DNA of 64,000 bases. Origin: an uncultured Candidatus Micrarchaeota archaeon. Its GTDB lineage: Archaea; Micrarchaeota; Micrarchaeia; Anstonellales; Bilamarchaeaceae. Positions within the stretch are counted from its first letter, which is position 1, and every line of letters begins with the position of its first letter. Below, piece by piece: positions 8,449-61,067 of this stretch. Location of the stretch: contig OY970229.1 of assembly GCA_963714085.1 (NCBI GenBank), forward strand, positions 416,001-480,000, written 5' to 3'. Under the pieces are notes generated by a model that had not been told where the DNA came from, did no database searches, and saw only the letters and a program-made list of their open reading frames with translations. Both the position numbers and the translations under genes were made by a program.

Positions 8449-8452
8449 ACGC

Positions 8453-30009: not shown

Positions 30010-30013
30010 TCAC

Positions 30014-34242: not shown

Positions 34243-34400
34243 TGGTGAACTTGATTTAACGATTATTTTACCAAGTTTAACGCTCTTCATCAAAAGCCGG
34301 ATGGGACTTGTTCGGATTGCGACCGGCTCCGGATGGGAGCAGCCTTTTTAATCTTTTTAAGGAAATCACAGACAGACCTCCCAAAGACAACGGTGTTTGC

Positions 34401-36011
34401 ATGGCTGATGGCGAGAACATATTTGCGCAGTTCAAGGAGCACTCGGTGGCGGAATTCTTCAAGAAGAACCAGCAGATGCTGGGTTTCTCCGGGAAGGTGC
34501 GCTCGCTCACCACGGTGGTGCACGAGCTTGTAACCAATTCTATCGACGCCTGCGAGGAGGCGGGCATACTCCCAGAAATAACCGTGAACCTGGAGGAGCT
34601 CGGCGAGGAGCATTACAGGCTCACTGTGCAGGACAACGGTCCGGGGATACCCAAGACGCACGTGGGCAAGGCGCTGGGCCAGATGCTCGCTGGGACCAAG
34701 TTCCACAGGTACATACAGCAGCGCGGCCAGCAGGGCATAGGCGCTAGTGGTTGTTGCATGTTCTCCTACCTGACCACGGGCAAGCCGACGAAGGCGGTCT
34801 CCTGCTACAAAGGCACGCGGTACGACCTCGAGGTGCTCATAGACTTCAAGACCAACAAGCCGCTGCTCAACATGATCTCCGAGAGCCCGACGGACCAGCA
34901 CGGCCTCACCGTGATATCCGAATACAAGGGAGTGAAGCACGAGCAGTCCAACAAGGGCATATTCGAGTACCTGAGGAGGACCGCGCTGGTGAACCCCCAC
35001 GCGTCTATCACGTTCATGGACCCCGTGACGGGGAAGGTCTCCCTTCCCAGGTCCACCGAGGTCATACCGCCGAAGCCGTTCGAGATAAAGCCCCATCCGC
35101 TGGGCATATCGCCACACGACCTCCTGGAGACGAGCCACCAGTATTCCACGGATTACAGGAAGCTCTCCTCCATGCTGCAGAACGCGTTCTCGCGAGTCAG
35201 CAGCGCGAAGGTGGAGGAGCTCAGGCGCCTCGTGCCGGACGTGGATTTCGACAAGAACCCGGCACTGCTCACATGGGAGGAAGCGGAGAAGGTGGTGAAG
35301 GGGTTCGGGCAGGTGAAGTGGATTGCCCCTGCGACCGACTCCCTCGTCCCAATAGGCCAGGCGCAGATAGAGAACTCGTTCAAGAACATCTTCAGCCCGG
35401 AACTCGTGATAGTCACCGAGAGGAGCCCGAAGGTCTACAAGGGGGGCATCCCGTTCATAGTGGAGGCAGGCATCGCATACGGAGGCGGGATAGCCGCCGC
35501 GGGCAAGCAGGGAGAGGTGATGCGCTTCGCCAACAAGGTGCCGCTCCTGTTCGACACGTCCGGATGCGCCATAACCGAGACCGTGAAGGCGATCGACTGG
35601 AACAGGTACAACCTGAAGAATTTCGACGAGGAGCCTATCGCGGTGCTCGTGAACCTCGCGTCCGTGCACATACCCTACACCGGGGCTGGCAAGCAGGCTG
35701 TGGCCGCTGAGGAGGAGGTCGAGAACGAGATAAGGTTCGCCGTGATGGAGGCCGCGCGCGGCATCCAGAGGTACCTCTCAGGCAAGCGGAAGGCGCATGA
35801 CATAGCGACCAGGAAGAAGCTAGTGGAGAGGTACGTGGAGCAGCTCTCCGCCGACCTGGCCGACCTCTCGGGCAGCAAGAAGGACAAGATCGTCAAGAAG
35901 CTCAATCAGATAATCGAGGACAAATACGCGGGGCCGGGCGCCGAAGGCGAGGATGAAGAAGGGCCCGCGGCGGAGACCGAAAACGAGGACTCGGACAGAG
36001 GCGATGAGTGA
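34401..36011 (+). CDS. top6B: DNA topoisomerase VI subunit B
   Basis: SVAEFF, ELVTNSIDA, DNGPGI, QRGQQGIG, RFANKVPLL. Confidence 0.97.
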   Translation: MADGENIFAQFKEHSVAEFFKKNQQMLGFSGKVRSLTTVVHELVTNSIDACEEAGILPEITVNLEELGEEHYRLTVQDNGPGIPKTHVGKALGQMLAGTKFHRYIQQRGQQGIGASGCCMFSYLTTGKPTKAVSCYKGTRYDLEVLIDFKTNKPLLNMISESPTDQHGLTVISEYKGVKHEQSNKGIFEYLRRTALVNPHASITFMDPVTGKVSLPRSTEVIPPKPFEIKPHPLGISPHDLLETSHQYSTDYRKLSSMLQNAFSRVSSAKVEELRRLVPDVDFDKNPALLTWEEAEKVVKGFGQVKWIAPATDSLVPIGQAQIENSFKNIFSPELVIVTERSPKVYKGGIPFIVEAGIAYGGGIAAAGKQGEVMRFANKVPLLFDTSGCAITETVKAIDWNRYNLKNFDEEPIAVLVNLASVHIPYTGAGKQAVAAEEEVENEIRFAVMEAARGIQRYLSGKRKAHDIATRKKLVERYVEQLSADLADLSGSKKDKIVKKLNQIIEDKYAGPGAEGEDEEGPAAETENEDSDRGDE

Positions 36012-37108
36012 TGGCAGAGAAAGCGACGCTTAAGAAACTCGAGGAGATGGGCACCGGCATGGTGAAGCAGATAGACGCCGGAGACGGGCCCACGTTCGAG
36101 ACCGTGCTGAGGACGAAATCCAACACCATCTACGATGAAGGGATCGGGTGCCTGAGGACCGGGGACAAGAAGGAACTGAGGAAGTTCCTGAGCATGGCCC
36201 AGGCCAAGACGTTCATGCAGACCGTCGCGATAGCGTCCAAGACCAGGAAATTCGTGAAGGAGGAGCTTCACACGTCGATCAGGGGCCTCTTCTACCAGCT
36301 CAAGTTCTCGCTGGGCGAGGACCTGGACGAGGATTTGTTCTCCGAGCAATCGGAGTCCAACGGGCTGATAGAGGACCTGGAGGTCGCGCTCGGCATAAAG
36401 AGGGAGGATTTGAACCTCACCACGGACAGGAAGGGGTTCGTGGCCGGCCCCATGACCATACTCGACAGGTTCGGAGGGGAGGAGACGCTCATAGACCTGG
36501 AGAAGCAGGGCAGGAGCGGCTGGTCCATACCGAGCGACGTGGACAACGGGATGGACATAAAGAAGCTGGACGCTGATTACGTGCTCGTTGTGGAGAAGGA
36601 CGCGCTGTGGCAGAGGCTCAACGAGGACAAGTTCTGGAAGAAGGAGAACTGCATACTTGTGACGCCAAAGGGCCAGAGCACGCGGGGGACAAGGCGGCTG
36701 CTGCGGAAGCTCGCGGACAGGAAGCTGCCGGTCTACTGCCTGATGGACTGCGACGCGTGGGGATGGTACATCTACTGGACCATAAAGACCGGCTCCATGA
36801 ACCTCGCCTACCTGGGCAGGGACTTCGCGGTCCCAGAGGCGCGCTTCATCGGGGTGACCATGTCGGACATTCAGGAGTTCGAGTTCCTCCAGAAGCTCAC
36901 GATCAACGCCAAGGAGGTCGACATCAAGCGCGCGGAGGAGATGCTCGGCTACCCCTGGATAAACCGGCACCCCGAGTGGGTGAAGGAGCTCAAGATGGTG
37001 CTCAAGACCAAGAAGAAGATCGAGCAGGACGCGCTGCAGGGGCAGAGGCTGACGTTCGTCGGGGAGTACATCAACAAGAAGATAAAGAAGAAGGACTGGC
37101 TGCCTTAG
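36011..37108 (+). CDS. top6A: DNA topoisomerase VI subunit A
   Basis: SIRGLFYQ (catalytic Tyr), VVEKDA, KGQ, DCDAWG, KKIEQDAL. Confidence 0.96.
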   Translation: MAEKATLKKLEEMGTGMVKQIDAGDGPTFETVLRTKSNTIYDEGIGCLRTGDKKELRKFLSMAQAKTFMQTVAIASKTRKFVKEELHTSIRGLFYQLKFSLGEDLDEDLFSEQSESNGLIEDLEVALGIKREDLNLTTDRKGFVAGPMTILDRFGGEETLIDLEKQGRSGWSIPSDVDNGMDIKKLDADYVLVVEKDALWQRLNEDKFWKKENCILVTPKGQSTRGTRRLLRKLADRKLPVYCLMDCDAWGWYIYWTIKTGSMNLAYLGRDFAVPEARFIGVTMSDIQEFEFLQKLTINAKEVDIKRAEEMLGYPWINRHPEWVKELKMVLKTKKKIEQDALQGQRLTFVGEYINKKIKKKDWLP

Positions 37109-37160: not shown

Positions 37161-39638
37161 TCAGCTCGTCTGGCACTTGTCGCCGATGGCCGCCGATGCC
37201 TGCGGGGTCCCGTCGACCGGGTAGTTCTTGCACGCGAGCGTCTGGAGCGTCTTCCATGACGGGCAGCTGGACGCGCCTCCGCAGCCCTGCTCGAGCGCCC
37301 GGTAATAGGACAGCACGCGCGAGGCGTAGTCTCCGTAGAACGGCTCGCTGCCCTGCAGCTGGTTGTTGGTCACGCTGCCTGGGCCGCCGTCCGGGTGCTC
37401 GAACATGCACGTGCGCACGAACGCCACGAAGTCCGTCATGCCATAGCATTCGGGGTGCTGAGCATCGGCCCTCAGCGCGCATTCGGGCGAATCCTTGTTC
37501 GCGTCCTGGCTGCAGAAATCCGCGGTGGCCAAGTACCTGGAGCCGAACTGGCTTATCCAGCTCTGTATATAACCGCCATAGCCCCTGTAGAGCTGCAACG
37601 CGAGATAATAGGATAACACCCGCTGGGTGTTGGAATCAGGGTTGCCCAGGTTGTTCAGGTTGGCTGTCACCAAGGTCTTCTCGGTTTGGAAGAATGACGC
37701 GAGTTTGTAGACCCCCATGCACGCGTTGTCCGTGGCATTGAACGGGTCGAAGTTGGCCGGGCACTGGGCTTGCGCCTGGACCACCATTGCTGATCTCTGG
37801 TTGAGCTCGGCTTCCAGGTAGAGCTGGTTGTTCGGGGCGCCGGAATAATACTGGCCGGGTTGCCCATTCGGGGTGAGGCTGGATGGCCAGAACGTGTACG
37901 GCGGCTCCAGGATCTGCATGAGCCCGAGACCGCAGTAACGCGCGCCCGGCGCCTGGTTGTCCGCTTCATGGCATATGCCCTCGGGATCAAGCACGAAGTC
38001 GTACCCTTTGGGATAGCATCCTGAATCCGAGCTGGTCGGAGTGACCTGAGCAGCAGAGCAGTTATCGAAGTCGGGATTCTCGGCTACCACGACTGCGCGC
38101 ACCAGCATGGGGTCGACGCTGTACTTGTTCGCGTAGTAATCGAGCGCCGGGATGCTGGTGCAATAGGTGAGATTCTTCGTCGGGTCCGAGAGCCCGATGT
38201 TCGTTGCCGGGACGTTGGCCGGGAAAGTGTAGTTCTCGTTGACGCAGGCGTCGCAGCGGATGAGCGTGATGTTCTGGGCTGTGAGGTTCGCCGTGATCTG
38301 CTCGCCCTGGTCCGTGTACTGCGCCTGGAGCATGCCCATGGCGTTGAGGTCGAAATCGCACGTGCCCCCGGACGCGTTCGGGAACACGATCATGTTGTCC
38401 CCGGCCGGGTATTTGCCGGCCTGGATCTTGTAGTTCCTGCAGGACCCGAACCAGGCCTGCATCCGGTCGGGTTGCGTCCCGAGCGCGCAGTCGGTGCATC
38501 CGAGCGGGTTGCCCAGCCCGAAGCTGGATGAGTTGAAGTCGTACGGCGCCATGCCCACTACGCCGGTCTTCTGGAACGGGAAGAGCCAGTACTTGAAGGC
38601 GTCGGCGTAGCCCTGCGCCATGCCGGCCTCGGTCCAGTTGCAGCTCCCGTTGGCGTCCGTGCCAGAGGAGTCGAAAAGTATGTACGGGATTATGGTCGGC
38701 TTGCTGTTGTTGTAGAGCGAGAACCTGGCGAAGGAGAGCGCCTGCTGGAACGCGCCGTCCGGGTCGCATGTCGCCTCGTTGGTCCAGCTCAGGTTCGCGG
38801 TATGGCCGTTGACGCCGAAGGCTATGAGGTCGACCTTGTTCCAGCCGTCGGGCCCCAGCTGCTGCCTTATCGCGTTCACGCCGTTGTAATCGCCCATCTT
38901 CACTCCGAGCGCCACGAAGCAGTGTATCTCCTCGTCCGCGCCGCCGGTGCGCTTGTTCCCGCACGCGGAATCTATCGCGAGCACCTGGTTGGAGACGTTC
39001 ACCACGGCGTCGTGCGAGGAACTGTTGAAGTCCATCTCCGTGGTTATGATCACCGGGCCGGCGTTTTTCAGCAGGCCCGCGATCTGGGCCGTGACCGGGA
39101 CGTTTATGCTCTGGCTGTTCGAATAGAGCACGTAGACCGGCATGATATCGTACTGGAGGAAGCATTGGGCGCGGCTAGCGTCTGGCAGGGTGTAGTTCGT
39201 CTCATTGCTTCCCACCAGCCATTGGACCGCCATGTCCAGCCGGTTGCCGCACCAGCCGTTGGCGTCCGCGAAATCCGTGAAGGTGTAGCCCTGGCCGATC
39301 ATGAACTGCCTGGGGAACAGGCCCGTGCTCACCGCGCTCCCGTTTATCAGGCTGTCGAACACGTCCTGGCTGCAGTTCTGTACGAACAGGCAGCTGCCGC
39401 CTGCGAATGAGTTCCTGAATCCGAACCAGGCCGTCGTGTTCCTGCATGCCAGGCAGACGCACTGCCCGAGATTGCACTTCTCGAAGGTGCTCGGGTCGTA
39501 GAGCGCGAAGGTGCCGTTGAGCCCGGTGCGGTAGTCCTGCGCATAGCCGGTGCCGGCGCCCAGGGTCTGTATGCATCCTGGCAGTAGCATGGGGGTGAGA
39601 GTCAGCAAAAAGAGCAATGCCGCGACATGGACCCGCAT
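37161..39638 (-). CDS. Secreted Cys-rich protein with C-terminal lytic transglycosylase (SLT/GH23-like) domain
   Basis: Signal peptide ending LLPGC; YANKYSVDPMLVRAVVVAEN, GLGLMQI, DPFNATDNACMGVYKL, YASRVLSYY. Confidence 0.78.
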   Translation of the reverse strand: MRVHVAALLFLLTLTPMLLPGCIQTLGAGTGYAQDYRTGLNGTFALYDPSTFEKCNLGQCVCLACRNTTAWFGFRNSFAGGSCLFVQNCSQDVFDSLINGSAVSTGLFPRQFMIGQGYTFTDFADANGWCGNRLDMAVQWLVGSNETNYTLPDASRAQCFLQYDIMPVYVLYSNSQSINVPVTAQIAGLLKNAGPVIITTEMDFNSSSHDAVVNVSNQVLAIDSACGNKRTGGADEEIHCFVALGVKMGDYNGVNAIRQQLGPDGWNKVDLIAFGVNGHTANLSWTNEATCDPDGAFQQALSFARFSLYNNSKPTIIPYILFDSSGTDANGSCNWTEAGMAQGYADAFKYWLFPFQKTGVVGMAPYDFNSSSFGLGNPLGCTDCALGTQPDRMQAWFGSCRNYKIQAGKYPAGDNMIVFPNASGGTCDFDLNAMGMLQAQYTDQGEQITANLTAQNITLIRCDACVNENYTFPANVPATNIGLSDPTKNLTYCTSIPALDYYANKYSVDPMLVRAVVVAENPDFDNCSAAQVTPTSSDSGCYPKGYDFVLDPEGICHEADNQAPGARYCGLGLMQILEPPYTFWPSSLTPNGQPGQYYSGAPNNQLYLEAELNQRSAMVVQAQAQCPANFDPFNATDNACMGVYKLASFFQTEKTLVTANLNNLGNPDSNTQRVLSYYLALQLYRGYGGYIQSWISQFGSRYLATADFCSQDANKDSPECALRADAQHPECYGMTDFVAFVRTCMFEHPDGGPGSVTNNQLQGSEPFYGDYASRVLSYYRALEQGCGGASSCPSWKTLQTLACKNYPVDGTPQASAAIGDKCQTS

Positions 39639-39690: not shown

Positions 39691-42600
39691 TCAGAGCCTC
39701 AGGCCGCACGCGCACATGGTGCCCATCTGGCCGGACCTGCCGCACCTGCAGTACCTCTGCCTCGACGCCATCTGCGGCGAGACCGCACGGTTGAGGGCGG
39801 CTCCGCCCCTCTGCACGAGCGAGTTCACGCTCTGCTCGAGGCCGCCCTTCCTGGACGGGTCGGGGTTCCTCCACCTGTTCACGAAGTTGTATATCATCTC
39901 CTTCGGGCTCAGGGTGCTCGGGTAGCCGGGCACGCCCATATGGTAGGCGAAGAGGAGCGGGTTGAAGAACGTGTAAAGCGGGTTGTTCAGCATCCCGAAG
40001 CTCGCGAGCTCCTGCTCCCTTCTCATGGCCAGCACTTCCACGGCCACGGGCCGCCTGATTATGTCGGTCATCCCCATCTTCCGGACGTAGTCGTCATGCA
40101 TGTAGAAGCCGGACATGCCCCCCATGCTCATCAGGGCGTACTCAGCCATTGCGGGCTCGAGCTGCTCTATGCCCCTGGTGTCGGTATAGCTGGCCGACGG
40201 GTTGGCAAGCCTGGTCCTCGCTATGGCAGCAGGTCCCTTGTACACGGTCTGTATGGAGGCGAAGTCCTGGTATAGGCCTTTCGAGTGGTCATAGCCCGCG
40301 AGTTGGGCCTTCTCCGCCCTGCTCTCGTACACGTTCGCCTTCTGGAGCGCCCTGGAGAACATGCCGTTGCTCTGGGAGACGGATAGAGGATTGTAGCCCC
40401 TCATCGCCTCCAGCAGCCTGGGGGACGTGTGGTTTCCATACGGCCTCAGGGCGTCCTGGACGTCCCAGTCCCATGAGGATGCGTATCCCTGGATGGACCT
40501 CTGCGGCCCGGCTATCGCCTTCTGGTATGGCATTATCGCATGCCTGCCGAGCGCCGCGGCCCAGCCTCCCTGCGCCATGAAGGCGAAGTACTCGCCCTTG
40601 GACATGTAGGCGCTGAGGGTCGACTGCAGAGAGAACGTCATGTTCGGCCCGTATTGGAACGCCGAGGCCCATGCCTGCTGCGCGCCATGGGAAGTCGAAT
40701 TCCTCCACGGGCTGCGGTCTATGGTGACTGCCCAGACCTGGTGGAAGGCCCCGTGGGCCAGCGCCATGGAGCGGTAGGCGGCCGAAAGATGCCTCCTGTC
40801 CGCCTCCGAGGTGACGCCCTGGAGCAGCTCGTCCATGTCGCTAGTCAGTATGTCCGTGGAGAGCCTCCAGGAGTACATCTTCAGCAGCTGGGTCTTCGGC
40901 GTGATGTCGTAGGACCTTGTGTAGAGGTTTCCGGTGCCGCTTATGGCGGTATTTACCAGGAAGTCACCCACGAGCTGCCCGAAGTCATGGAACGGCTTGA
41001 GCGTCTTGGCCAGCTTCGGTACGTCCGATCCGAAGGCCCTCAGCGCGTCGGGCGTCAGCGGCGTGGTCTGATTCCTGGGCACGAGCTTCACCGCGCTCTT
41101 GTTCCAGTAGGTCTGGTAGTCGTAGGTGGCATTGGAGTATTTCCAGAGCACCGCGGCCAGGACCTTCTCGGCCTCGTAGTTGCCGCCCTTGCCGTTGGGC
41201 CTGGTCTGTTCAATCAGGTTGTTGATGAAAGGCTCCCAGACAGTCTTATCCGAGCTGTTCATGACCCTCTTCCATTCCAGGTCCATTTCGCCCTTGAATC
41301 TCACTGGCACGTCCTCCGGGCTGAAGCGCCTCCAGCCCTTGCCGTCGTGGATTGACACTACCCCGCCCAGCACCCTGTCGTTGTCGCTCACAGGCATGTT
41401 CTCCCGGTACGGTATGTAGGTGCCCTCGTGGGTCATCACCCACACGCCCTTCGAGAGATCGTCCACGCTGACGCCCCTCTTGAGGACTTCCTCGTACTGC
41501 TTCTTGTATAGCGTGCCTATCATGTACCTGAAGCGCTCCATGTCCTTCGGACTGGTGACGTCCATGCTGTTGAGGAACCGGAGGTCTGTGTGATTCTCCT
41601 CATAGCCCATTTCGCGCAGCGCCTTGGTCAGCATCGCCGCAGAAGCGCTCGTCAGGTAGCGGGCTGATTCGTTGGTCGTGTTCCCGTATGAGTTCTGGGC
41701 GTACCTGTCGCTGAACGTGTTGTGGAGGGTCTTCTCGAACAGGTCCCTGGCCCAGGCTTTCTTGGTCTCGAACTCCAGCTTCTCCGGGCTCCAGGTCCTG
41801 GCTCCGGCGCGGTCGAGCTCCGCCTGCAAGGAATTGTTGGTCGGGCGTACGAAGCTCCTATCGAACTTGCCCTGGGTCGCGGTGCCGGTTGTGAGCTGAA
41901 GTTCGCGTGTATCTATGCCATTGAGCCACTGCTGCTCCATTCTGGTCTTGAACCAGCCTTTCTGGGGGCCTATGGCGCTTTCGTCCTCATACCAAACCGC
42001 CTTGCCTGTCGTGGGGTCCCTGAGAACGCCTCCGCCTTCATTTATGAGGCCTCTCTTTTTTATCATGTACTCGGCGCCTGAGAGCACGTGCATGAAGTCG
42101 TCCATCGTGGCAGTGTCCTTGTTCCTTTTGCCGTCCGTGAGGTACTTGAGCGCCTCCTCTCCCTTGTCCGTTATGAGGCTGGCGAGCAGTTTCCTGTTCT
42201 CCTCGGTCTTCTTCTGCCTCATCCCTGTGTCCCGCATGAACTCCGGAAGCAGGTCAGCCCCTATGGCTGCGGGGTTGAGCGTCATCCACTTGTTCTCGAG
42301 TTCCACCCGCAGGGCGTTCATGAAGTCCTTCAGCGTGACGTCCTTGGTGGCGTGGCCGTTCGATATGTCGTCGATCTGCTTGCGGAAGAGCGCGACCTCC
42401 CACGGGTCAGAGCCGTGCAGGTAGCCGAGCCTGCCGACCAGGCAGTGGTACTCGTCGCCCAGCATCGCCTCTCCGACCCCGGCGCCCCTGCGCGCGCTGT
42501 TCTCGCGGTCGAAGAGCTCGTTTATCATGATCATCTTGACATGACCTTCTGCCGAGTCGTTCCTGATCTTGTCGACCTCGGATCTCATGTGCAGGTAGGA

Positions 42601-44511
42601 TGCGTCGAGGCGGCCTCCCAGGGACTGGAGCAGGTTCTCGAGCTTGTCGCGCTTTTCGAACGGGGATAAGGAGGCGGACGAGAGTATTGCGTATATCTCG
42701 GATTCCGTAGCCGCCATCCTGCCAGAGCGCGAGTAGCCGGTTATCCTCACCGGGTCCACCACGCTGCTGGCCATGGCGAAGATTTCGTTGTCCGTCACCG
42801 CGGCGGCGTTGGTGCCAAGCTGCTTGTATATCCTTTTCAGCAGGTGGCGGTTCTGGTCCTGGCCCAGTTCCGTGAGGTGGACCTCGGCCTGGTGGCTCAT
42901 CCTCATGTTCACGGGCATGATCTCGCCGAGGTGGATCTTGCCGGGCTGCTTGGTGAGCTGGTTGTAGAGCGCAGCATAGGCCCCGGAGGACTTGGATCTC
43001 TCCTTGAGCGCGTCCATCGCGCCCTTGCCGCCCACGGTCGTCACCGCGAACTTGCCGGTCGCGCGGGCGAGATCCATGCCTTGCACAACACCTGCCTGCG
43101 TGCCTCTTGCGAGCATCTTGAGGGAACGCATCCCGGCGTCGTAGCTGCCCGTGACTATCGGGCCTGCGACTGCGAACTTGTCGACGCCGACGGCTCTCAA
43201 TGCGGTCTGTATCTTCTTGCCGGTCCTGGTGGACGCCTTGTTATTGAGTTCGGCAAGGCTCTGCAGGACGTCGTAGTTCTGCCTGAGTTCGACTCCGGTC
43301 CTTCCGAGCAACCGGACGTTGGGGTCCTTCGACATCTCGAGCTTCTTGAGCACCTGCCTGAGCGAGGCGTTGTCCTCTTTGCTGTACAGCTCGAACGGCT
43401 TTGCCAGCGCCCTTAGCGCTTTGGGATCGCCGCCGCCCTGCACGTATGCCAGCCCGACAGACTTGAATACTGCTGCCTCTTGGGCGCTCATTCTGCCTGC
43501 GAGTTTGCCCACTTCGGCCTTGCCTGCGGCCAGATTGGTCGCGGCCTTGCCTGCGGCCATGTCTTCCAATTGTTTGATTGTCGCCTGGTTGGCCTTGCCC
43601 TTGTTGATGTTCCATAGCGTATCGGCGACTTTCGCAGCAGCCGCGGCCTTGGCCTTGACTGTCCTATTCATCTCGCCGTAGCCGAACGGTGCGATTATCT
43701 GGCCGCCGGCCGCGAGCCCCTTCGGGGACGGAAGCTTCGGCGTGGTTATATCGAGCATGGTTATCGGCGATCTGCCGGAGAAGTACATGGACGCGAGCAG
43801 AAGGCCGAGTATTATGAATACCCCGAGGCAGGGTACGGTCTGCCCCTGCCCGGTGAGCGAGAGATTGGTCGCCACCGGCGCGAGCGCCATCGAGAGCGCT
43901 GATGTGAAGTTCGACGCGGCGGATGCGTTCGCAGAGCTCAGGGTCACGGACTGCACGGGCGCGACCAGCTGGTCTCCGGTAGCGGAGAGCACCCTTATCT
44001 GTATCGTGGTGCCGGCGTACAGCCCCTTGTCCACGGTGCAGGTGCCTGTCCAGAGCGGTATCTGGCCGCCCGTTATATTAACTATAGTGCCTGGCTGGTT
44101 CGCGGTGACCCTGCCGCAGCCGGTGATTGTGGACCATCCGGCGCCACCCTGCCTGTACGGGTTCCAGTACATGAAAGTGAAGTTCGCGTCCTCCAGGGAC
44201 GAGAAGGTGACTGGATATACCGCGTTGGACGAGAGTATCGTGCTCTTGGCCTGGATGCATTGGTTGATGTCCGGGCTTCCCTGGCACCCGGTGACTATGT
44301 CGTTGTACTGGGCCTGGACCGCGGATACCGCCGAGGAAGGCTGGTTCGCGGTGAAAACGAGCATTGACACGTTGATGACGTTGTCGGCGCTCCTCACCCA
44401 CAGCTGGCTTGTGACCTGCTGTGTGGTGGGCGTTTGGGCGATCGTTTGCGCTGACACGACGCTAAGTGACAGCAGCAGGAGCATCCCGAGCATCACGATA
44501 TTGAGTTTCAT
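39691..44511 (-). CDS. Giant (1606 aa) single-pass membrane protein of unknown function
   Basis: Signal peptide, about 200-aa external domain, TM LGVFIILGLLLASMYF, large basic internal region, C-terminal CRCG..CACG. Confidence 0.85.
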   Translation of the reverse strand: MKLNIVMLGMLLLLSLSVVSAQTIAQTPTTQQVTSQLWVRSADNVINVSMLVFTANQPSSAVSAVQAQYNDIVTGCQGSPDINQCIQAKSTILSSNAVYPVTFSSLEDANFTFMYWNPYRQGGAGWSTITGCGRVTANQPGTIVNITGGQIPLWTGTCTVDKGLYAGTTIQIRVLSATGDQLVAPVQSVTLSSANASAASNFTSALSMALAPVATNLSLTGQGQTVPCLGVFIILGLLLASMYFSGRSPITMLDITTPKLPSPKGLAAGGQIIAPFGYGEMNRTVKAKAAAAAKVADTLWNINKGKANQATIKQLEDMAAGKAATNLAAGKAEVGKLAGRMSAQEAAVFKSVGLAYVQGGGDPKALRALAKPFELYSKEDNASLRQVLKKLEMSKDPNVRLLGRTGVELRQNYDVLQSLAELNNKASTRTGKKIQTALRAVGVDKFAVAGPIVTGSYDAGMRSLKMLARGTQAGVVQGMDLARATGKFAVTTVGGKGAMDALKERSKSSGAYAALYNQLTKQPGKIHLGEIMPVNMRMSHQAEVHLTELGQDQNRHLLKRIYKQLGTNAAAVTDNEIFAMASSVVDPVRITGYSRSGRMAATESEIYAILSSASLSPFEKRDKLENLLQSLGGRLDASYLHMRSEVDKIRNDSAEGHVKMIMINELFDRENSARRGAGVGEAMLGDEYHCLVGRLGYLHGSDPWEVALFRKQIDDISNGHATKDVTLKDFMNALRVELENKWMTLNPAAIGADLLPEFMRDTGMRQKKTEENRKLLASLITDKGEEALKYLTDGKRNKDTATMDDFMHVLSGAEYMIKKRGLINEGGGVLRDPTTGKAVWYEDESAIGPQKGWFKTRMEQQWLNGIDTRELQLTTGTATQGKFDRSFVRPTNNSLQAELDRAGARTWSPEKLEFETKKAWARDLFEKTLHNTFSDRYAQNSYGNTTNESARYLTSASAAMLTKALREMGYEENHTDLRFLNSMDVTSPKDMERFRYMIGTLYKKQYEEVLKRGVSVDDLSKGVWVMTHEGTYIPYRENMPVSDNDRVLGGVVSIHDGKGWRRFSPEDVPVRFKGEMDLEWKRVMNSSDKTVWEPFINNLIEQTRPNGKGGNYEAEKVLAAVLWKYSNATYDYQTYWNKSAVKLVPRNQTTPLTPDALRAFGSDVPKLAKTLKPFHDFGQLVGDFLVNTAISGTGNLYTRSYDITPKTQLLKMYSWRLSTDILTSDMDELLQGVTSEADRRHLSAAYRSMALAHGAFHQVWAVTIDRSPWRNSTSHGAQQAWASAFQYGPNMTFSLQSTLSAYMSKGEYFAFMAQGGWAAALGRHAIMPYQKAIAGPQRSIQGYASSWDWDVQDALRPYGNHTSPRLLEAMRGYNPLSVSQSNGMFSRALQKANVYESRAEKAQLAGYDHSKGLYQDFASIQTVYKGPAAIARTRLANPSASYTDTRGIEQLEPAMAEYALMSMGGMSGFYMHDDYVRKMGMTDIIRRPVAVEVLAMRREQELASFGMLNNPLYTFFNPLLFAYHMGVPGYPSTLSPKEMIYNFVNRWRNPDPSRKGGLEQSVNSLVQRGGAALNRAVSPQMASRQRYCRCGRSGQMGTMCACGLRL

Positions 44512-44626: not shown

Positions 44627-45673
44627 ATGAAGGGCGCGAACCCTTTTACACCGTGGGGCGCAGGGCCCCAGGATTTCATAGACAGGAAACCTGAGATGGA
44701 AATGTACGGAAGTTTTCTTAAGGCGATCGGAGGCGGCATGAGCGAGGTGCTGCTGGTGGCCGGAGCGCCGGGGAGCGGAAGGAGCGCGCTCCTGCGCAGG
44801 CTGCAGCAGGAATCCACGAAGGCCGGCGTGTTCGCTCCGCTGGTCTCAGCCGGCGACGGCGAGAGGTTCCCGTCCTTCCTCTCCAAGCTCTCCTCCGAGC
44901 TGCTCGCCTACGCCCAGGAGAAGGAGGGCGAGGGCGCGCTTTCGGACAGGATGCTTTCCGGGCTGAAATCGGCTGCCGGCGGGGAGGACATGCTGCTCTC
45001 GTTCGCCCGCATGGCGCTCAAGCACGCGGGAGGCATGGTCCTCCTGGTTGACGACGCGGACAGGCTCGGGAGGCCGGACGAACTCATCCAGTTCGTGACC
45101 AGGATGATGAAGGTCGCCATCGCCGAGCGGCTCAGGTTCGGCTTCCTGCTCTCGTTCAGCGAGGGCTTCAGGAGATTCTCTGCCATGGGCAGGGAGATGC
45201 GGCTCGGCCCGTTCGAGGAGCACGACCTCAGGGAGATGGTGGATGGCGCGCTGAAGAAAGGCCCGAAGATGGGGGAGGAGTGCTTCAGGACGCTGAACAG
45301 CGAATCCGAGGGCAACCCGCTTGTCGCAAAGACGATATGCTGGGTGATATACGATAGGCTGCCGGACAACGAGAGGATAATAACGCAGAGGCACTACCTG
45401 ACGTACTATCCGGCGGTGATGAGCACGCTGTCCAGGGAGTTCTTCGACAGGCTTTACCTCGAGCTGCCCGGTTCCGAGAGGGAGGTCCTGCGCGCCTTCG
45501 CCTCCGCCGGAAAGCCTGCTTACATCTCCGACATCGCGAGGGCGCTCGGCAAGCGCCACGCGACCACGCTCGCGCTGCGGCTGGTGGAGCGCGGGCAGCT
45601 GGTGAGGGTGGATAGGGGCTTGTACAAAGTGTTCACTAAGTTATATGGAAGATATGTACTCCAGAGGGGATGA
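44627..45673 (+). CDS. AAA+/STAND-like ATPase with C-terminal wHTH (degenerate Walker A)
   Basis: NPF, FIDRKPE, GAPGSGRS, LLVDDAD, SEGNP, RLVERGQL. Confidence 0.85.
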   Translation: MKGANPFTPWGAGPQDFIDRKPEMEMYGSFLKAIGGGMSEVLLVAGAPGSGRSALLRRLQQESTKAGVFAPLVSAGDGERFPSFLSKLSSELLAYAQEKEGEGALSDRMLSGLKSAAGGEDMLLSFARMALKHAGGMVLLVDDADRLGRPDELIQFVTRMMKVAIAERLRFGFLLSFSEGFRRFSAMGREMRLGPFEEHDLREMVDGALKKGPKMGEECFRTLNSESEGNPLVAKTICWVIYDRLPDNERIITQRHYLTYYPAVMSTLSREFFDRLYLELPGSEREVLRAFASAGKPAYISDIARALGKRHATTLALRLVERGQLVRVDRGLYKVFTKLYGRYVLQRG

Positions 45674-54820: not shown

Positions 54821-57355
54821 TCAGACCCCTTTGAACTCCTGCACCATCTTCTCGAGCTCCGGATAGGTTAGCAACATCACCGAATTGGCCTCGACCTCCA
54901 GCTTCATCACGAGCGGCGCCTTGGTGATGGAGTTGAGCTGGCCCGCGAACTCGCCCTTCTCCACGTCGTCCTTGAAAAGCACGATGGTGATGCCCTTGCT
55001 GAGCGTAGAGAGCGCCCTCGTGAGGACGTCCGCGGCGTTGGTCTTGTCGTAGAAGTGCAGGAACATCTGCTGTCCTACCACGGTTATCTCGCTGTCGCAC
55101 ACCTCTGATTCGCCGAGCTGGGTGAAGGGTATCGCGTTGTTGACGCAGATGTCCCTCAGCTTGCGGAGCATCGCCAGGTAGCGCACGCTGTGGCCGGCCT
55201 TCGGCTCCCACTCCTCGAGCCCGTAGTAGTCGAGGAACTCCTTCACCTTTTTCATCCTGACGAGCTGGTTGAGCAGGAACTCGGTGTTGTAGTCGGTTAT
55301 GAATATCGGGTTGCCCCGGAAGTACATGTTCTTGAACCCGTTCTTCACCTCGCTCGCCACCAGCGGGGTGTACTCCCACCTGTAGGTCGTGTTGACACGG
55401 TCGAACACGGACAGCACGGCGTCTGTGGTGAGCGGTATCTTGGTGCGCGAGACCGGCGGGAAATCAGGCACGTCGATGGAGAAGAAGACCTGCTCCTGCC
55501 TGGCGAAGTACAAACCCACTCCCATTATGGCCCCTGCGAGCAGCACGACCAGCAGGAGGCCGGGCGGGAACGGAGGCGGCGGTATGGGCCTGTAGTAGGA
55601 CGCGGTCTTCTGGAAGTTCCCGGCGGTGAATGCGAACGTGTGGTTGCCGTAGGAGAGCGCGTCTCCGCCGCTGTACTGCGAGATGTCCACGCTCAGAGGG
55701 CCTGCGGAGACGCCGCTGAAGTCCTTCTTGAACTTACCGCTGTCCAAGTCGACGCTGAGCGTATCGAGCGTGATCGGAGTATCCACCTGGAATATGTAAA
55801 TGGAGGGCTTCGCGCCCTGGGTCGGCCCGGTTATGGATATGGACTGCACGTCCAGGTAGGTGGAGGCGTAGACCTTGCCCGTGTCGTCCTCCAGGCTGAC
55901 CATGTACTCTCCCTGGTCGAGGGGGATCTGCACGTCCAGATTGGCGTTCTGGGTCTGGGTGTTCACGGTGCCCACTGGGGTGCGCAACACCTCGGTGCCG
56001 TTCAGATCCATGAATGCGAGGGACATGGATGGCGATGCGGGGGTGGGCTCTGCGAGATTGGCGTTCAGCCTTATCACCCCGCCCGTGATGTTGGTGTTCG
56101 TGATGGTGAGCTGGGGCGTGTAGAGCTCGCCGAGGGAAGACTTGCCCACGTTGAGCACCTTCATGTCCTGGAAGGATGAGCCCCTGGGCGTGAGGCCGGT
56201 GAACGACACCTTGACGCTGCGTTTCACTCCGTCGTAGGGCAGGCTGAAGAACTGCTGCGTGCCTGAGAGGCCGGTGGACAGGTTGTCTGCCCTCAGCGTG
56301 TAGGTCGAGCCGGCGTTGTCCGGCACCGCCCATGGCGTCTCCACGACTATTCGTGCGATGTCATGGGCTGCCGCCACCGGGTCCGAGCGCCAGCCGCCGT
56401 CGATGGTCTGAGGGACCATGAGCAGCGTGCCGTTGCCGAAAGGGAGCACGGAGACGCATCCGTAGGCCATCGCGGCGCCGTCCACCTGGTAGAGCGGCTG
56501 GAAGAGCGTGAAATTGTCCGTGCACGTGGGCGAGGCCGTCTCATCGAAGGATATCTGCAGGGACGCGTACACGTCCTGGGGCGTGGTTTGCACGAGCGTG
56601 CCGTTGAGCATGGACTTGAAGGACTGGCCGATGTACACCACGACCACGCCCTCGTTCATCAGGCGCATGATGCTGCCATTGCCGGCCAGCAGCTGCTCGG
56701 GGACCACGCCTGACGGGATTATCACCTCGGCGCCCCTGGGCACGGTCTCCAGCTGCTGGAAAGATATCTCGTCGAGCACCACGCCCGTGCTGCCCAGATC
56801 GCCGCGGAGCGCGGTGAGGAAGTCCGAGTAGCGGGTCGCCTCGATCCGATTCGAGTTCAGCACGAACACCTGCGTCGGCAGCTGCTCGGGGTAGGTCTTG
56901 AGCGAGATCGTGTAGTTCATGATCCCGCTGGTGTTGTAGTTTATGAAGAGCATCGCGACGTGGTCGTTGCTGCCGCGGGACGCGGCGCTGATCACGCTGC
57001 CGGAGATTATCTTGTTGGACAGCGACGCCTTCTCCACGGGCTGGACCTGCGTGTACCCGGGGGATATGTTCGGCATGAGTAGCATCAGTCCGGCAACCAC
57101 GAGGATGATGGCGATCACGAACGCAGCCGCGATGGGCAGCAGGTTGAATCCGCCGGGCGCAGGCGCTTCCTTGGCCGGGCCGGAGGCTGTGGGCGTAGCC
57201 GCCTTCTTCGGGGCCAGGAACGCCTTGAGGGAGTCCCTGAGCTTGTCGAGCCCGCTGCGCGCTATCACCTTGTAGCGCAGCACGTACTGGTATCGCTTGT
57301 GGGCTTCGAACTTGTATATGCCCCTGCGGATCTTCAGTGCGCCTATCTCGACCAT
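54821..57355 (-). CDS. Two-TM membrane protein with large extracellular domain (ATPase operon gene 5)
   Basis: TMs near aa 72-93 and 598-617; N-glycosylation sequons between them. Confidence 0.82.
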   Translation of the reverse strand: MVEIGALKIRRGIYKFEAHKRYQYVLRYKVIARSGLDKLRDSLKAFLAPKKAATPTASGPAKEAPAPGGFNLLPIAAAFVIAIILVVAGLMLLMPNISPGYTQVQPVEKASLSNKIISGSVISAASRGSNDHVAMLFINYNTSGIMNYTISLKTYPEQLPTQVFVLNSNRIEATRYSDFLTALRGDLGSTGVVLDEISFQQLETVPRGAEVIIPSGVVPEQLLAGNGSIMRLMNEGVVVVYIGQSFKSMLNGTLVQTTPQDVYASLQISFDETASPTCTDNFTLFQPLYQVDGAAMAYGCVSVLPFGNGTLLMVPQTIDGGWRSDPVAAAHDIARIVVETPWAVPDNAGSTYTLRADNLSTGLSGTQQFFSLPYDGVKRSVKVSFTGLTPRGSSFQDMKVLNVGKSSLGELYTPQLTITNTNITGGVIRLNANLAEPTPASPSMSLAFMDLNGTEVLRTPVGTVNTQTQNANLDVQIPLDQGEYMVSLEDDTGKVYASTYLDVQSISITGPTQGAKPSIYIFQVDTPITLDTLSVDLDSGKFKKDFSGVSAGPLSVDISQYSGGDALSYGNHTFAFTAGNFQKTASYYRPIPPPPFPPGLLLVVLLAGAIMGVGLYFARQEQVFFSIDVPDFPPVSRTKIPLTTDAVLSVFDRVNTTYRWEYTPLVASEVKNGFKNMYFRGNPIFITDYNTEFLLNQLVRMKKVKEFLDYYGLEEWEPKAGHSVRYLAMLRKLRDICVNNAIPFTQLGESEVCDSEITVVGQQMFLHFYDKTNAADVLTRALSTLSKGITIVLFKDDVEKGEFAGQLNSITKAPLVMKLEVEANSVMLLTYPELEKMVQEFKGV

Positions 57356-57367
57356 CGCAAATCACGC

Positions 57368-58168
57368 CTATTTGAGGACTTCCAGGTAGCCCTCGCCGAC
57401 CAGCCTGTTGAGCATCTGCTCGACCCTGGCCTCCGGGATCTTGTACACCTTGGTGAACTCGATCACGTTTATCTCGCCGTTGTGCTCCATGACCCACTCT
57501 TGGAGCTTGGCCTTGAGCGCGTCGTCCGACAGGACCTCGAGCGCCTGGACCCGCAGCTGCATCTCGTCGTTCGAGGCCTTGAGCTCGTAGTTCTTCGTGG
57601 TCAGCGCCTCGGACTGGTCCTGGAGACGCTCGACCTTCTTGCGCAGGTCGTCGGCGTCCTTCTTCATGGAATCGTAGGCGGTGTAGAGCTTGGAGTAGTC
57701 CATGGTCACGGACTCGAGCAGGTCCTTAACCGCGGCCTCGATGAGCTGGTAGAGCACCTTGTTTTCTATCGGGTATGACGACTCGACCAGGGTGAGGATG
57801 TTGAGCAGGTAGCGAATGACGTCGAGCTTCCTCTTCCTGGGCGCGATCTCGGATGGTATGGAATACAAGACCTCCAGCTCGTCCTTCTTCAGCTTGAGTA
57901 TGGAGAACAGGTAGGGGTTCTTGTTTATGTCCCTGGACTCCACGTAGACCACGTTGACCGCGTCCTTCTCAGGAGCGACCTCCAGGAACGAGATGGTGCG
58001 CAGCGTGTCCGATATGTCCTTCGCCGTGCCGATCATCTTCGCCTTTATCTTGAATCCGTCGACCTTCGGCGTGAGCGATGCCGCGCCGGCGGCCGGCTGC
58101 GCTGCGGCTGGTGCGGGTTTCGCGGCGCTACTGGCCGCTGCCGCCGGTTTCTGCTGTGGTGGCGCCAT
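57368..58168 (-). CDS. Coiled-coil protein with C-terminal (broken) winged helix (operon gene 4)
   Basis: Heptads MKKDADDLRKKVERLQDQ; C-terminal LQEWVMEHNGEINVIEFTKVYKIPEARVEQMLNRLVGEGYLEVLK. Confidence 0.82.
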   Translation of the reverse strand: MAPPQQKPAAAASSAAKPAPAAAQPAAGAASLTPKVDGFKIKAKMIGTAKDISDTLRTISFLEVAPEKDAVNVVYVESRDINKNPYLFSILKLKKDELEVLYSIPSEIAPRKRKLDVIRYLLNILTLVESSYPIENKVLYQLIEAAVKDLLESVTMDYSKLYTAYDSMKKDADDLRKKVERLQDQSEALTTKNYELKASNDEMQLRVQALEVLSDDALKAKLQEWVMEHNGEINVIEFTKVYKIPEARVEQMLNRLVGEGYLEVLK

Positions 58169-58175
58169 GTATCAT

Positions 58176-58646
58176 CTACCCCTTCTTCCCGGACGGCTTC
58201 CTCGCCCCGGGTGCTGGCTTCCCCTTGCTCTCGATCTCCTCTAGCGCCTCGGGGAGCTTGGGCTTCCCTGCCTTGGGCCCCTCGCCGGGCCCCTTGTCCA
58301 GGGCGGGCGCGTACTTGAACACTATCGCGAAAAGCAGTATGAAGAGGCCTATGAGTATGGCCGAGATGAACGCGAATATGTCGAAGCGGCCGGACATGAT
58401 GATGGTGAGCACCAGGAGTATGACGACCACGGCCGCCAGGACTCCGAAGAGCACGAGCGAGCGCTCGAACTCCTTCCTCCGCTTGTCGTGGACCGGTATG
58501 TCGTCCTCGCACACGTAGAGCTCGTTGTTCTGCGCGATGTTGAAGGCGGACTTGACCTTCCTGATGGAGCGGATGATGGCGTCATCCTTGACCGGTACCG
58601 CGCTCTTGCCCTCCACGTCCTTCTGGCACACTATGCAGATCCGCAT
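58176..58646 (-). CDS. Small membrane protein with N-terminal Cys motif and two TMs (operon gene 3)
   Basis: CIVC...LYVC, two hydrophobic helices, basic tail. Confidence 0.8.
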   Translation of the reverse strand: MRICIVCQKDVEGKSAVPVKDDAIIRSIRKVKSAFNIAQNNELYVCEDDIPVHDKRRKEFERSLVLFGVLAAVVVILLVLTIIMSGRFDIFAFISAILIGLFILLFAIVFKYAPALDKGPGEGPKAGKPKLPEALEEIESKGKPAPGARKPSGKKG

Positions 58647-58650
58647 GGCA

Positions 58651-60243
58651 TCAACCCTCGAGGACGACCTGGGTTATCTCCTTGGCGCCGCCTTCCGTCT
58701 TCCTCATGTCCACCTTGCCGAACACGTTGATGATCGTGATGTCGTCCAGGCCCGTGTCTTTGAGGAAGTCGCCGATGTTCCTCCTCGCCACGCCGAACCG
58801 CTCGAGCGTTATCACCAGCGACACGACGTCCAGGTGCCGGTTCTTCTTCTCGAACATCTTGGTGAGCTCCTCCACCTTGTCGTCCCCGAGCCCGAACTGC
58901 CTCATCTTGCGCCTGAAATCCTCCTTGATGAATGAAACGCTTTTGGCCATGTTGACATCCCTCTTCTGCTTGACGCTCATCACTTCGTCCAGGTCGAGGA
59001 AGAATTCCTTCGCCGGCTCCTCTCCGATTATCTTCTCCAGCAGGAACGTGGATGGGTATGGGGTCGGGGTGGTCAGGGCCATGTTCACGGCCGCCTCGCC
59101 GACACCCAGCCTTGATATCTCCTCGCGCATGTAGTTGGAGAAGTTCAGCGAGCCCTGGAGGTAGTCCAGGAACTTCTCGAACTTCACCTTGAGCATGAAC
59201 GTGGTGCCGACGTTGGAGAATATGGCCTCGGATATGTCCGTCGGGTTCTGGGAGGCGACGATCATGCCGAAGTTGTACTTGCGTCCCTCACGCACTATCA
59301 TGACCAGGTCCGAGTTCTCGTCCTTCGCGATCTTCCACGCCTCGTCCACCACCAGTATGAGCCGCAGCCCCTTCTCGCTGGACCAGCCGGAGAGCCGCAT
59401 CTTCTCCTTGGCGAACTGCATGAGCGTGAGCGCGGCCATGGCCCTGAAGGTCTCGTCCGGCAGGCCAGAGAGGTCCAGGTCCACCAGCCCGGACGTGATA
59501 AGGTCCTCCAGCTTCACAGTGGACTGCTGGGCGAAGAAATCCTCGCCCGACTTCGTGTACTGCTTGAGCCTGTAGATGGCGTTCTCCAGCTCGGCCGGGA
59601 ATTCGTAGGTGCCCAGCGATGCCTGCTCCTCGAGCAGACGCACGACGTCCTTGAGCGTCGGGGCGGTGAGCGACTTGCCCAGCTCGTCCTTCTGCTCCCT
59701 CGCGTCCATGCGGTACTTGGCCTCCACGTAGGCCTTCTCCATGGCCTGCTCCGTGAGCCGCTTCTGCTCCGGGTAGTTCGCGATGTCCGTGAGCATCTCC
59801 AGTGTGCGCATTATCTGCTTGAGCCTGTCGTAAGGCTTCATGCCGCCCAGGTCCAGTATGTTGAGGTAGGAGCCCTTGCCGAGGGATATCACCTTGCCCC
59901 CGGTGTCCTTGACCCAGGGCTTGTATTCCCCGGCCCAGTCGAATATGAGCGCGTTCGCGTTCCACACGAACGCCGCGCGCAGCAGGAAGGTCTTGATGAA
60001 GTAGGACTTCCCAGAACCGGATATGCCCACAACGGCTATGTGCGGGTTGGGCACGTTCTGGTAGTTCCAGTAGAACGGCGCGTGGAATATCTTGGTCTTG
60101 CCGATGAAGATGGAGTTCGCCGGGTCGTCGCACAGGACGGAGAGCGGCGGCTCTGGGGGGTAGACCAGCAGGTTCCTCCTGCTGAGCTCCCGGTTCGAGA
60201 CCTTGAGAACCTCCAGCTTTCCGCTCAGGACCATTGTAAGCAC
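58651..60243 (-). CDS. VirB4/HerA/CedB-like P-loop ATPase (operon gene 2)
   Basis: NPHIAVVGISGSGKS, IFDWAGEY, LVVDEAWK, REGRKYNFGMIVASQNPTD; start GTG 60243 or ATG 60234. Confidence 0.9.
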   Translation of the reverse strand: MLTMVLSGKLEVLKVSNRELSRRNLLVYPPEPPLSVLCDDPANSIFIGKTKIFHAPFYWNYQNVPNPHIAVVGISGSGKSYFIKTFLLRAAFVWNANALIFDWAGEYKPWVKDTGGKVISLGKGSYLNILDLGGMKPYDRLKQIMRTLEMLTDIANYPEQKRLTEQAMEKAYVEAKYRMDAREQKDELGKSLTAPTLKDVVRLLEEQASLGTYEFPAELENAIYRLKQYTKSGEDFFAQQSTVKLEDLITSGLVDLDLSGLPDETFRAMAALTLMQFAKEKMRLSGWSSEKGLRLILVVDEAWKIAKDENSDLVMIVREGRKYNFGMIVASQNPTDISEAIFSNVGTTFMLKVKFEKFLDYLQGSLNFSNYMREEISRLGVGEAAVNMALTTPTPYPSTFLLEKIIGEEPAKEFFLDLDEVMSVKQKRDVNMAKSVSFIKEDFRRKMRQFGLGDDKVEELTKMFEKKNRHLDVVSLVITLERFGVARRNIGDFLKDTGLDDITIINVFGKVDMRKTEGGAKEITQVVLEG

Positions 60244-60251
60244 CTATGCGA

Positions 60252-61067
60252 CTAGATGGTCGCCTCCTCGAGATCCTGCGGAGTGACCGGGAAGAACCTC
60301 TCCCATTCGAAGCATTTGAGCATCTCCTCGCCTTTTAGCCACTTGACCTCCACGTTCAGGGCGTTGGAGAGCACGGTCATGAGCTCGTTCGCCTGCGCCT
60401 TGGCGGATGCGGTGGCGCCCTCCTTGCTCAGGGCGGCCGCCGTGGTCATGGCATAGGCGATCACACCCATGGGCTTCACGCCCTTGATGAGCTTGTTCAG
60501 CTGGAGGTCCCAGTGGGCGACCTCGCGCTCGTACTTGTCTATCTTGAGCACATCGGCGTCGGACTTGTCCCTCTCGCGGGCAAGGCGCAGCTGGGCCTCC
60601 GCCCGCTTGGTCTCTATCTGCTTCCTCTTCTCGCCGATGTCCTCCACGTAGAGCATGTACGCGATCTTGGTGACGTATTTCAGGTTGGACACCGCGCGCT
60701 CGAAGAACTCGTTGTAGGCGATGTTCTCCTCGGTCGCCTTCTCGGTGGCGGACTCGAATATCTTGATGCCGAGGAAGACGCTCGCGTAGTACACGCCGTT
60801 CTCCATCTGCTTCACTATGACGTCCTCGCCTGCGGGGATCTCGTAGCCCCCGTCCATCTTCATGATTATCCTGGTGCGCTCCGTGATGATCGGGATGAGC
60901 AGGTAGCCGTATTTCCAGAAGATGAATGTGCCGAAGGCGCCCAGTGCGCAGAGTAGGGCACCTATTATCGTCGCGCCGCTCGAGCCCTGGCCGAACATGA
61001 AAACGAAGACCAGGCCTATCACCGCGGCGCCTAGCGAGCCGTATATGAACATCTTTCCTTCTGCCAT
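60252..61067 (-). CDS. Two-TM protein with coiled coil, resembling a detached VirB4 N-terminal/TraC-like domain (operon gene 1)
   Basis: Two N-terminal TMs, alpha/beta region with helical hairpin, directly upstream of the ATPase. Confidence 0.72.
   Translation of the reverse strand: MAEGKMFIYGSLGAAVIGLVFVFMFGQGSSGATIIGALLCALGAFGTFIFWKYGYLLIPIITERTRIIMKMDGGYEIPAGEDVIVKQMENGVYYASVFLGIKIFESATEKATEENIAYNEFFERAVSNLKYVTKIAYMLYVEDIGEKRKQIETKRAEAQLRLARERDKSDADVLKIDKYEREVAHWDLQLNKLIKGVKPMGVIAYAMTTAAALSKEGATASAKAQANELMTVLSNALNVEVKWLKGEEMLKCFEWERFFPVTPQDLEEATI

Follow-up and report, generated by a model that had tools for sequence, protein, structure and literature searches.

The 64,000-nt window of DNA analysed here comes from a Candidatus Micrarchaeota archaeon (Bilamarchaeaceae; GCA_963714085.1, contig OY970229.1, positions 416,001–480,000) and carries a gene, here called F0, for a Cys-rich predicted lipoprotein. 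In this protein, a predicted glycoside hydrolase (GH)-type barrel is followed by a diverged domain with a predicted SLT/GH23 lysozyme fold. We tentatively favor, at somewhat short of an even chance, the reading that F0 opens walls, in the manner of VirB1, for a contact machine of Micrarchaeota that resembles type IV secretion or Ced systems. The gene, its predicted domains and their key residues are as follows:

37161..39638, minus strand: F0, whole gene; 825 aa, Cys-rich, predicted lipoprotein consisting of barrel and SLT domain
39573..39638, minus strand: signal peptide with lipobox-like L-P-G-C (Cys22), predicted lipid anchor
38409..39326, minus strand: predicted (beta/alpha)8 barrel of clan GH-A type (GH26/GH5/GH2-like), residues ~105–410, from model and structure matches
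39036..39038, minus strand: Glu201, end of barrel strand 4 (clan GH-A acid/base position), kept in 125/132 rows
38682..38684, minus strand: Tyr319, barrel strand 7 (clan GH-A nucleophile Glu position), Tyr in 127/132 rows
37269..38171, minus strand: predicted SLT/GH23 lysozyme-fold domain with Cys-rich insertions, residues ~490–790, from model and structure matches
38079..38081, minus strand: Glu520, predicted catalytic acid (motif I), from conservation and EtgA/MltC helix alignment
37914..37925, minus strand: GLMQ (motif II), G572 in 157 and Q575 in 146 of the 159 rows covering the domain
37587..37589, minus strand: Tyr684 (motif III), Y in 150/159
37302..37331, minus strand: DYASRVLSYY (motif IV), Y779 in 146/159

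An initial sequence-only reading had proposed a lysozyme-fold enzyme from a series of SLT motifs and had named structure prediction as a check. The motifs that it quoted are all present in the order given, its candidate catalytic codon is that of Glu520, and a lysozyme-like fold is indeed predicted (pLDDT 92.2 for a model of residues 480–825). When this model was compared with known structures by VIA-align, the top nine rows were all lytic transglycosylases or g-type lysozyme (Z 13.4–8.9). MltF ranked best (Z 13.4, root-mean-square deviation (rmsd) 3.0, 177 aligned), and the matches included Slt (5o2n; Z 12.3), MltC (Z 12.0, rmsd 3.0, 149 aligned), MltE (Z 10.9), Slt70 (Z 10.6) and g-type lysozyme (Z 10.5). 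Foldseek placed the same classes at ranks 1–10, none of them below E 0.18.

In single-sequence searches, the F0 protein alone has no match in Pfam, NCBIfam or PDB sequences, and the claim was therefore tested through homologues. A profile of 17 diverse SLT segments matches EtgA (E 7e-4) with the catalytic helix aligned, and the helix of MltC is aligned as well. The Pfam SLT check suggested by the sequence-only reading gave a divided answer: the window protein has no match, but 15/40 close homologues (best 3.4e-4) and 9/17 of the diverse segments (best 3.8e-14) match at E<=0.1, and several homologues (e.g. at loci L041, L139, L116 and L033) exceed the Pfam cut-off. Glu520 is invariant in 40/40 close homologues and is E in 149/162 aligned rows of a wider 173-protein set. 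Across the 159 rows covering the domain, E520 is found in 146 and is followed by Ser521 in 133 and by Asn in 3; the E-N of the window protein, remarked on earlier as a departure from the usual E-S, is thus a local deviation. Glu520 and motifs II–IV are kept across the window's family at 25–50% overall identity.

SLT domains also occur in stand-alone form. One such copy in this genome (L114:4104–5147, or G000:C1:112103–113146, plus strand) encodes 347 aa with a hydrophobic N-terminal anchor and an intact Glu-Ser, and sits outside any operon of the partner gene F1 described below. Relatives have stand-alone forms too, with Gln replacing Glu in three. A 267-aa exported protein encoded 6 kb away (L114:11394–12197, or G000:C1:119393–120196, minus strand) has one helix that looks lysozyme-like by eye, and no Pfam match.

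The N-terminal half of F0 had been read as a TIM barrel of glycoside hydrolase type, and the structural evidence agrees. The full-length model (pLDDT 85.9, pTM 0.86) contains eight strand/helix repeats at residues 113–405, Foldseek matched the barrel to a GH26 lichenase at E 1e-6, and structure alignment returned GH5 and GH2 enzymes at Z 17–18, including a GH5 mannosidase (Z 18.3, rmsd 3.6, 271 aligned), with 7–13% identity to the matches. A barrel profile searched against PDB sequences gave three chance-level matches only. In a taxonomically wider set, Glu201 is kept in 57/69 rows, and the strand-7 nucleophile position is Glu in 0/69 and Tyr in 40/69. The GH-A nucleophile motif is assumed here in its familiar form, and Tyr319 was placed at it by strand order rather than by residue-level superposition. 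Because this position is never Glu, the barrel is unlikely to work as a retaining hydrolase of the conventional kind. Conserved aromatics cap strands 2, 3, 7 and 8, and the predicted domain reads as a glycan-binding or docking module, or as an enzyme with a non-standard mechanism. Barrel paralogues are also found in other families of the class inside giant open reading frames of 1700–2800 aa (G245:C2, G081:C17, G187:C4, G285:C1 and G119:C1).

F0 had also been described as secreted. It does have an export-type N-terminus, but behind a hydrophobic N-terminal stretch Gly21 is found in 135/138 rows and Cys22 in 138/138, and the Gly-Cys pair lies inside the first 60 residues in 127/138 full-length rows. 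These near-invariant residues, identified with what we take to be the lipobox consensus, suggest a lipoprotein rather than a freely secreted enzyme. The intact reading frame (GC content at third codon positions 0.86) encodes 34 Cys and 20 N-glycosylation sequons.

F0 is a native Micrarchaeota gene. Its contig is a single 1.57-Mb piece, its GC content matches the rest of the window, and it is convergent with the genes for topoisomerase VI B and A. A sequence search with F0 yielded 40 proteins including the query, and a profile search yielded 305 clusters at E<=0.001 (150 of them listed). Among the matches listed, every taxon-named one carries the label Micrarchaeota or archaeon, including Bilamarchaeum, Bilamarchaeaceae and the isolates LFW-35 and LFW-283_2, which belong to Anstonellales (PMC8561730). 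The gene is present in 36/41 relatives and in all 18 of the high-quality ones. A scan of 301 genomes from this phylum detected the SLT domain in 104, including 63/65 in its own family and 20/23 and 13/14 in two other families of the same order; the scan gave no match in either of the two largest outside families (0/74 and 0/54). As kin are not independent, no statistical test is claimed for these genome counts. A quick tree of 66 barrel domains is mostly grouped by family, with family f6 split, and no order of gain and loss is claimed from it because 25/63 inner branches are open and the root is a midpoint. F0 is a core gene and is largely vertical rather than patchy.

Two tandem full-length F0 copies stand behind one F1 at L044:7983–13161, and two adjacent copies are likewise found in genome G258. 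A promoter and terminator scan of the locus gave nothing above shuffles. A feature-atlas search returned SLT clusters (0.94) and GH26-type or unnamed clusters (0.91–0.93) with few shared features, which serve as leads only.

Clues to the substrate come from what follows the barrel in relatives. M23 and NlpC/P60 are known peptidoglycan peptidases. Of 62 post-barrel segments cut, 53 were scanned (seven own-family members and two short fragments were omitted), and an M23 peptidase was found in 6/53 and NlpC/P60 in 1/53, above the Pfam cut-off and spread over six families. The metal-ligand motifs HxxxD and HxH of M23 are complete in 4/6; of the other two domains, one has degenerate motifs and one is truncated by a contig end. 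The NlpC/P60 fusion has its Cys and His. One of the seven peptidase-fused tails has only a weak SLT signal. The combination of SLT and peptidase is the layout of monoderm VirB1 (PMC12102498), and these fusions point to peptidoglycan as the substrate, in which case the host would be a bacterium.

A VirB1-like protein would be expected to be tied to a membrane machine. Two further features of the window are relevant here:

39691..44511, minus strand: F1, partner gene; 1606 aa, 52 bp upstream of F0
54821..61067, minus strand: five-gene operon with a VirB4/CedB-like ATPase (58651–60243), presumably of the same machine

From hydropathy and conservation, F1 is predicted to have a signal peptide, a ~200-aa ectodomain, one membrane helix near residue 226 and a large cytoplasmic part with a C-terminal Cys cluster; it has no Pfam or NCBIfam match. 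F1 lies directly upstream in 63/68 barrel-bearing loci (two of the 68 are duplicates, and three of the five misses are near contig ends) and in 44/46 once profile-training loci are set aside, and its family profile is nearly that of the barrel. A third component, F10, is a set of six paralogous multi-pass membrane genes. F10 genes abut F1-F0 at L031, L033, L036, L105, L106 and L113 (families f9, f6 and f21), and they abut the ATPase operon in 5/5 genomes fetched from f13, f14 and f15, families without F0. The best NCBIfam matches of the ATPase are CedB (2e-22) and VirB4-like CD1110 (9e-21). F0 and the ATPase are 14 kb apart in the window and ~2 kb apart in genome G107.

Counts for these components are nested at the family level: F10 is found in 266 of the 301 genomes, the ATPase in 261, the barrel and F1 in 127 each, and the SLT domain in the 104 given above, and F10 and the ATPase are missing from the same families. 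Co-occurrence with the ATPase operon had been proposed as a check on F0. The nested profiles and gene order speak for the association, but co-occurrence with a near-universal ATPase is by itself weak evidence, and gene order carries the argument. All of these genes may thus serve one machine, with F10 and the ATPase as a phylum-wide core and F1-F0 as an accessory in some lineages.

Several observations touch these components. At L093:2303–17903 (G000:C1:665302–680902), the F10 array lies between a second barrel protein (1533 aa, Cys-rich, predicted lipoprotein) and a divergent F1 paralogue of 1133 aa. A homologue search with F10 gave proteins that are unnamed or labelled hypothetical, apart from one whose label looks unrelated, and the weak matches of F10 to toxin and other families were rejected as chance level. 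The topoisomerase VI genes (window 34308–37108, plus strand) are convergent with F0 in 11/21 loci and, in families without F0, with the ATPase operon instead, which hints at one ancestral locus.

Under the mechanism that we favor, F0 would be exported, anchored at Cys22 and displayed at the cell surface together with F1. The barrel, with its acid/base Glu and no nucleophile Glu, would bind glycan or dock F0 on the machine beside the F1 ectodomain. Glu520 would protonate the beta-1,4 bond between N-acetylmuramic acid and N-acetylglucosamine (MurNAc-GlcNAc), with a lytic or hydrolytic outcome, making a local nick in the wall of a contacted bacterium. Through the resulting gap, the membrane complex, driven by the ATPase, would gain access to the membrane of the partner, and bacteria would be the contact partners of these archaea, as hosts, prey or DNA donors. 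Peptidase fusions, gene order and nested phyletic profiles give the VirB1 idea, already raised by the sequence-only reading, indirect support.

A number of results weigh against this wall-opener reading. In the VIA-align ranking, a GH23 chitinase (Z 8.7) and a GH124 cellulase (Z 8.3) follow at lower ranks, so the substrate is not fixed by the fold. Motif III has the consensus A/G-Y-N in known enzymes, and its Asn is not kept: Asn follows Tyr684 in 14/159 rows, at a variable position. Among the 45 SLT-positive rows of the taxonomically wide set, 33 have E at the Glu520 position and six proteins of family f9 carry another residue; in one further row the position is gapped in the alignment although the protein has the Glu. 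Taken with the motif counts above, this suggests a diverged GH23-like enzyme that is probably active in the window's family and decayed in some lineages; part of one family has lost the Glu. F0 of the window carries neither a peptidase domain nor a recognized peptidoglycan-binding domain. Searches of its genome (87.65% complete) for M23, PG_binding_1, LysM, AnmK and Mur ligase found none of them. On the side of the machine, the barrel and F1 are kept without a detectable SLT domain in many members of the class, and the F0-F1 pair, the operon of the ATPase and the F10 array occupy three separate places in this genome. F10 has no assignment in Pfam, NCBIfam, PDB or plasmid proteins and every NCBIfam match of the ATPase is below cut-off, which leaves weak similarity and gene order as the basis for calling the machine type IV secretion-like. 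Finally, the abstract of a 2023 preprint states that all cultivated DPANN archaea have archaeal hosts.

Some of these results would also fit an active SLT domain that serves the contact machine by cutting a glycan other than peptidoglycan, either a chitin-like or GlcNAc-rich glycan of an archaeal host or the producer's own coat. This would account for the lost motif III Asn and for a fold held in common with GH23 chitinase, GH124 cellulase and GH134 mannanase. It is also consistent with a genome in which peptidoglycan accessory genes were not found, with the archaeal hosts of cultivated DPANN, and with host guesses for Micrarchaeota from horizontal gene transfer, which name archaea (PMC12892359). 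We nevertheless consider it unlikely, as two unrelated types of peptidoglycan peptidase are fused behind the domain (7/53 tails), lytic transglycosylases outrank chitinase and cellulase in the fold search, and the scan did not find the SLT domain in the two largest families of the class, which keep F10 and the ATPase.

F0 could also be a surface lysozyme that cuts peptidoglycan independently of any machine, whether to kill or prey on bacteria or to scavenge their necromass. Archaea with peptidoglycan hydrolases lethal to bacteria do exist (PMC12352652), GH23 enzymes have been proposed for predatory Woesearchaeota (PMC9723730), and the stand-alone SLT copy at C1:112103–113146 is located away from F1. 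However, the weaponized hydrolases of PMC12352652 are patchy and plasmid-enriched, whereas F0 is a core gene tied to F1 and vertically kept; for that reason the antagonism proposed by the sequence-only reading fits less well. AnmK, which would recycle the product, was not found either. We regard an independent lysozyme as distinctly unlikely.

Catalysis might instead be vestigial, with F0 an adhesin or structural subunit whose two GH folds are glycan-binding modules. The barrel nucleophile position without a single Glu in 69 rows, the six f9 proteins without the SLT Glu, the several families without a detected SLT domain and the second barrel paralogue in the 1533-aa lipoprotein adjoining the F10 array would all be in keeping with such a role. 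Against it speak the retention of Glu520 and motifs II–IV at 25–50% identity in the window's family and the intact peptidase domains fused in relatives, and it appears improbable. An artefact, by bacterial contamination or chance motifs, has next to no probability: the protein alone lacks a library match and Foldseek E values for the SLT model are all >0.001, but the gene sits on a single 1.57-Mb contig beside topoisomerase VI genes at window-like GC and has 305 clusters of matches at E<=0.001, and an artefact is refuted by its presence in 18/18 high-quality relatives, by the labels of the taxon-named matches and by the fold matches.

If the wall-opener reading is correct, these archaea live on or attack bacteria. 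Whether any DPANN archaea live on bacteria is debated, and the case for it has so far drawn largely on annotation hits from Woesearchaeota and Pacearchaeota. The F0 family provides a testable handle in Micrarchaeota, as a core gene missed here by standard annotation, with one mutable catalytic residue, natural variants (added peptidases, lost Glu) and a candidate delivery machine. Release of muropeptides by F0 would point to bacteria as partners of a lineage that has been called metabolically capable and perhaps less dependent on hosts, and would offer candidate hosts for cultivation attempts. Inactivity on peptidoglycan would instead indicate that a lysozyme fold has been adapted to act on an archaeal glycan. 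A broader proposal, which we consider doubtful, is that Anstonellales and neighboring lineages are epibionts or predators of bacteria with a phylum-wide, undescribed machine resembling a type IV secretion system (T4SS), whose exchangeable cargo at a lipoprotein tip predicts, lineage by lineage, whether the partner has a peptidoglycan wall. That this cargo would be SLT, SLT plus M23, SLT plus NlpC/P60 or none is put forward with no greater confidence.

Other genes of the window were also noted. Five genes at 27034–30634 (minus strand) have pilin-like N-termini that fit what we presume to be the pattern of a class III signal peptide; none has a library match, and similar genes adjoin topoisomerase VI-B and the ATPase operon at L096. 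A gene at 45678–46943 (minus strand) encodes a GGDEF domain (diguanylate cyclase-like; Pfam E 7e-16), which is unusual for an archaeon and is also present in a same-genus genome. The gene at 44627–45673 (plus strand), divergent from F1 and kept in 7/21 loci, encodes an AAA ATPase with a C-terminal helix-turn-helix. Two large paralogous exported proteins are encoded at 1–8454 (minus strand), the first with many right-handed beta-helix repeats.

The sequence-only reading treated such an enzyme as unexpected in archaea. This premise is too strong, since GH23 transglycosylases have been reported in other DPANN archaea. Woesearchaeota and Pacearchaeota are reported to have transglycosylase-domain proteins (bioRxiv 2021.01.12.426361), as are Woesearchaeota of Lake A (PMC9723730) and three DPANN genomes from an oxygen-deficient zone (ODZ; PMC10634959). 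For Norongarragalinales genomes, a single extracellular GH23 and a single M23 are noted (PMC8561730). In literature searches that did not extend to subscription papers, and in a term search of PMC12892359, no description of the F0 family was found. The available text of PMC12892359 treats Anstonellales without mention of peptidoglycan or secretion, that of the T4SS review PMC12857230 does not mention DPANN, and "Micrarchaeota" is absent from the supplement files of PMC12352652 that were searched, whose tables may omit phylum names. A barrel-like docking structure in a DPANN envelope is described in PMC11329633, with its genes not named in the part available. Thus, DPANN transglycosylases are already reported in other phyla, and the F0 family is a Micrarchaeota form not found in print by these searches.

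Among these proteins, F0 can be compared with fam00969, the large murein transglycosylase-domain proteins of Woesearchaeota and Pacearchaeota (PMC8204110; also PMC9723730 and PMC10634959), which likewise has an exported GH23-type domain, is lineage-wide and has been read as a sign of bacterial hosts. As published, fam00969 has a length of 1947 and a value of 0.0 in Micrarchaeota (N=13), and the F0 family is set apart from it by its 700–1000 aa, its barrel and its fixed partner gene. With the hydrolases of PMC12352652, F0 shares an archaeal producer, a peptidoglycan-type catalytic domain and, in relatives, M23. Those enzymes require a recognized wall-binding domain and are patchy and horizontally moved, whereas F0, a core gene with largely vertical inheritance, encodes a protein predicted to be anchored in the membrane.

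With respect to enzyme families, F0 resembles the family-1 lytic transglycosylases/GH23 (MltF, MltC, MltE, Slt70 and EtgA; PF01464) and g-type lysozymes in its predicted fold (Z 10–13), in a catalytic Glu that ends the first long helix, in GLMQ, and in the Tyr of motifs III and IV. It differs from them in that its domain spans ~300 aa rather than ~160 because of Cys-rich insertions, motif III is without Asn, the domain stands behind a GH-A-like barrel, F0 has no Pfam match, and no peptidoglycan synthesis gene was found in the producer. The barrel is like clan GH-A enzymes (GH26, GH5 and GH2) in its predicted (beta/alpha)8 fold and in the Glu that ends strand 4, and unlike them in the absence of the strand-7 nucleophile Glu from 69/69 rows and in its 7–13% identity to matches.

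Under the favored reading, VirB1 is the functional parallel, which F0 resembles in its SLT domain, in the SLT-peptidase fusions of relatives and in a genomic tie to a VirB4-like ATPase and multi-pass genes. It departs from VirB1 as a predicted lipoprotein with a barrel, with a partner F1 that has no known counterpart and with F10 not matched to VirB6. VirB1 opens the producer's own wall, whereas the target of F0 would be the wall of another cell. If the epibiont or predator proposal holds, F0 would amount to a VirB1 of archaea that is directed at the wall of a foreign cell.

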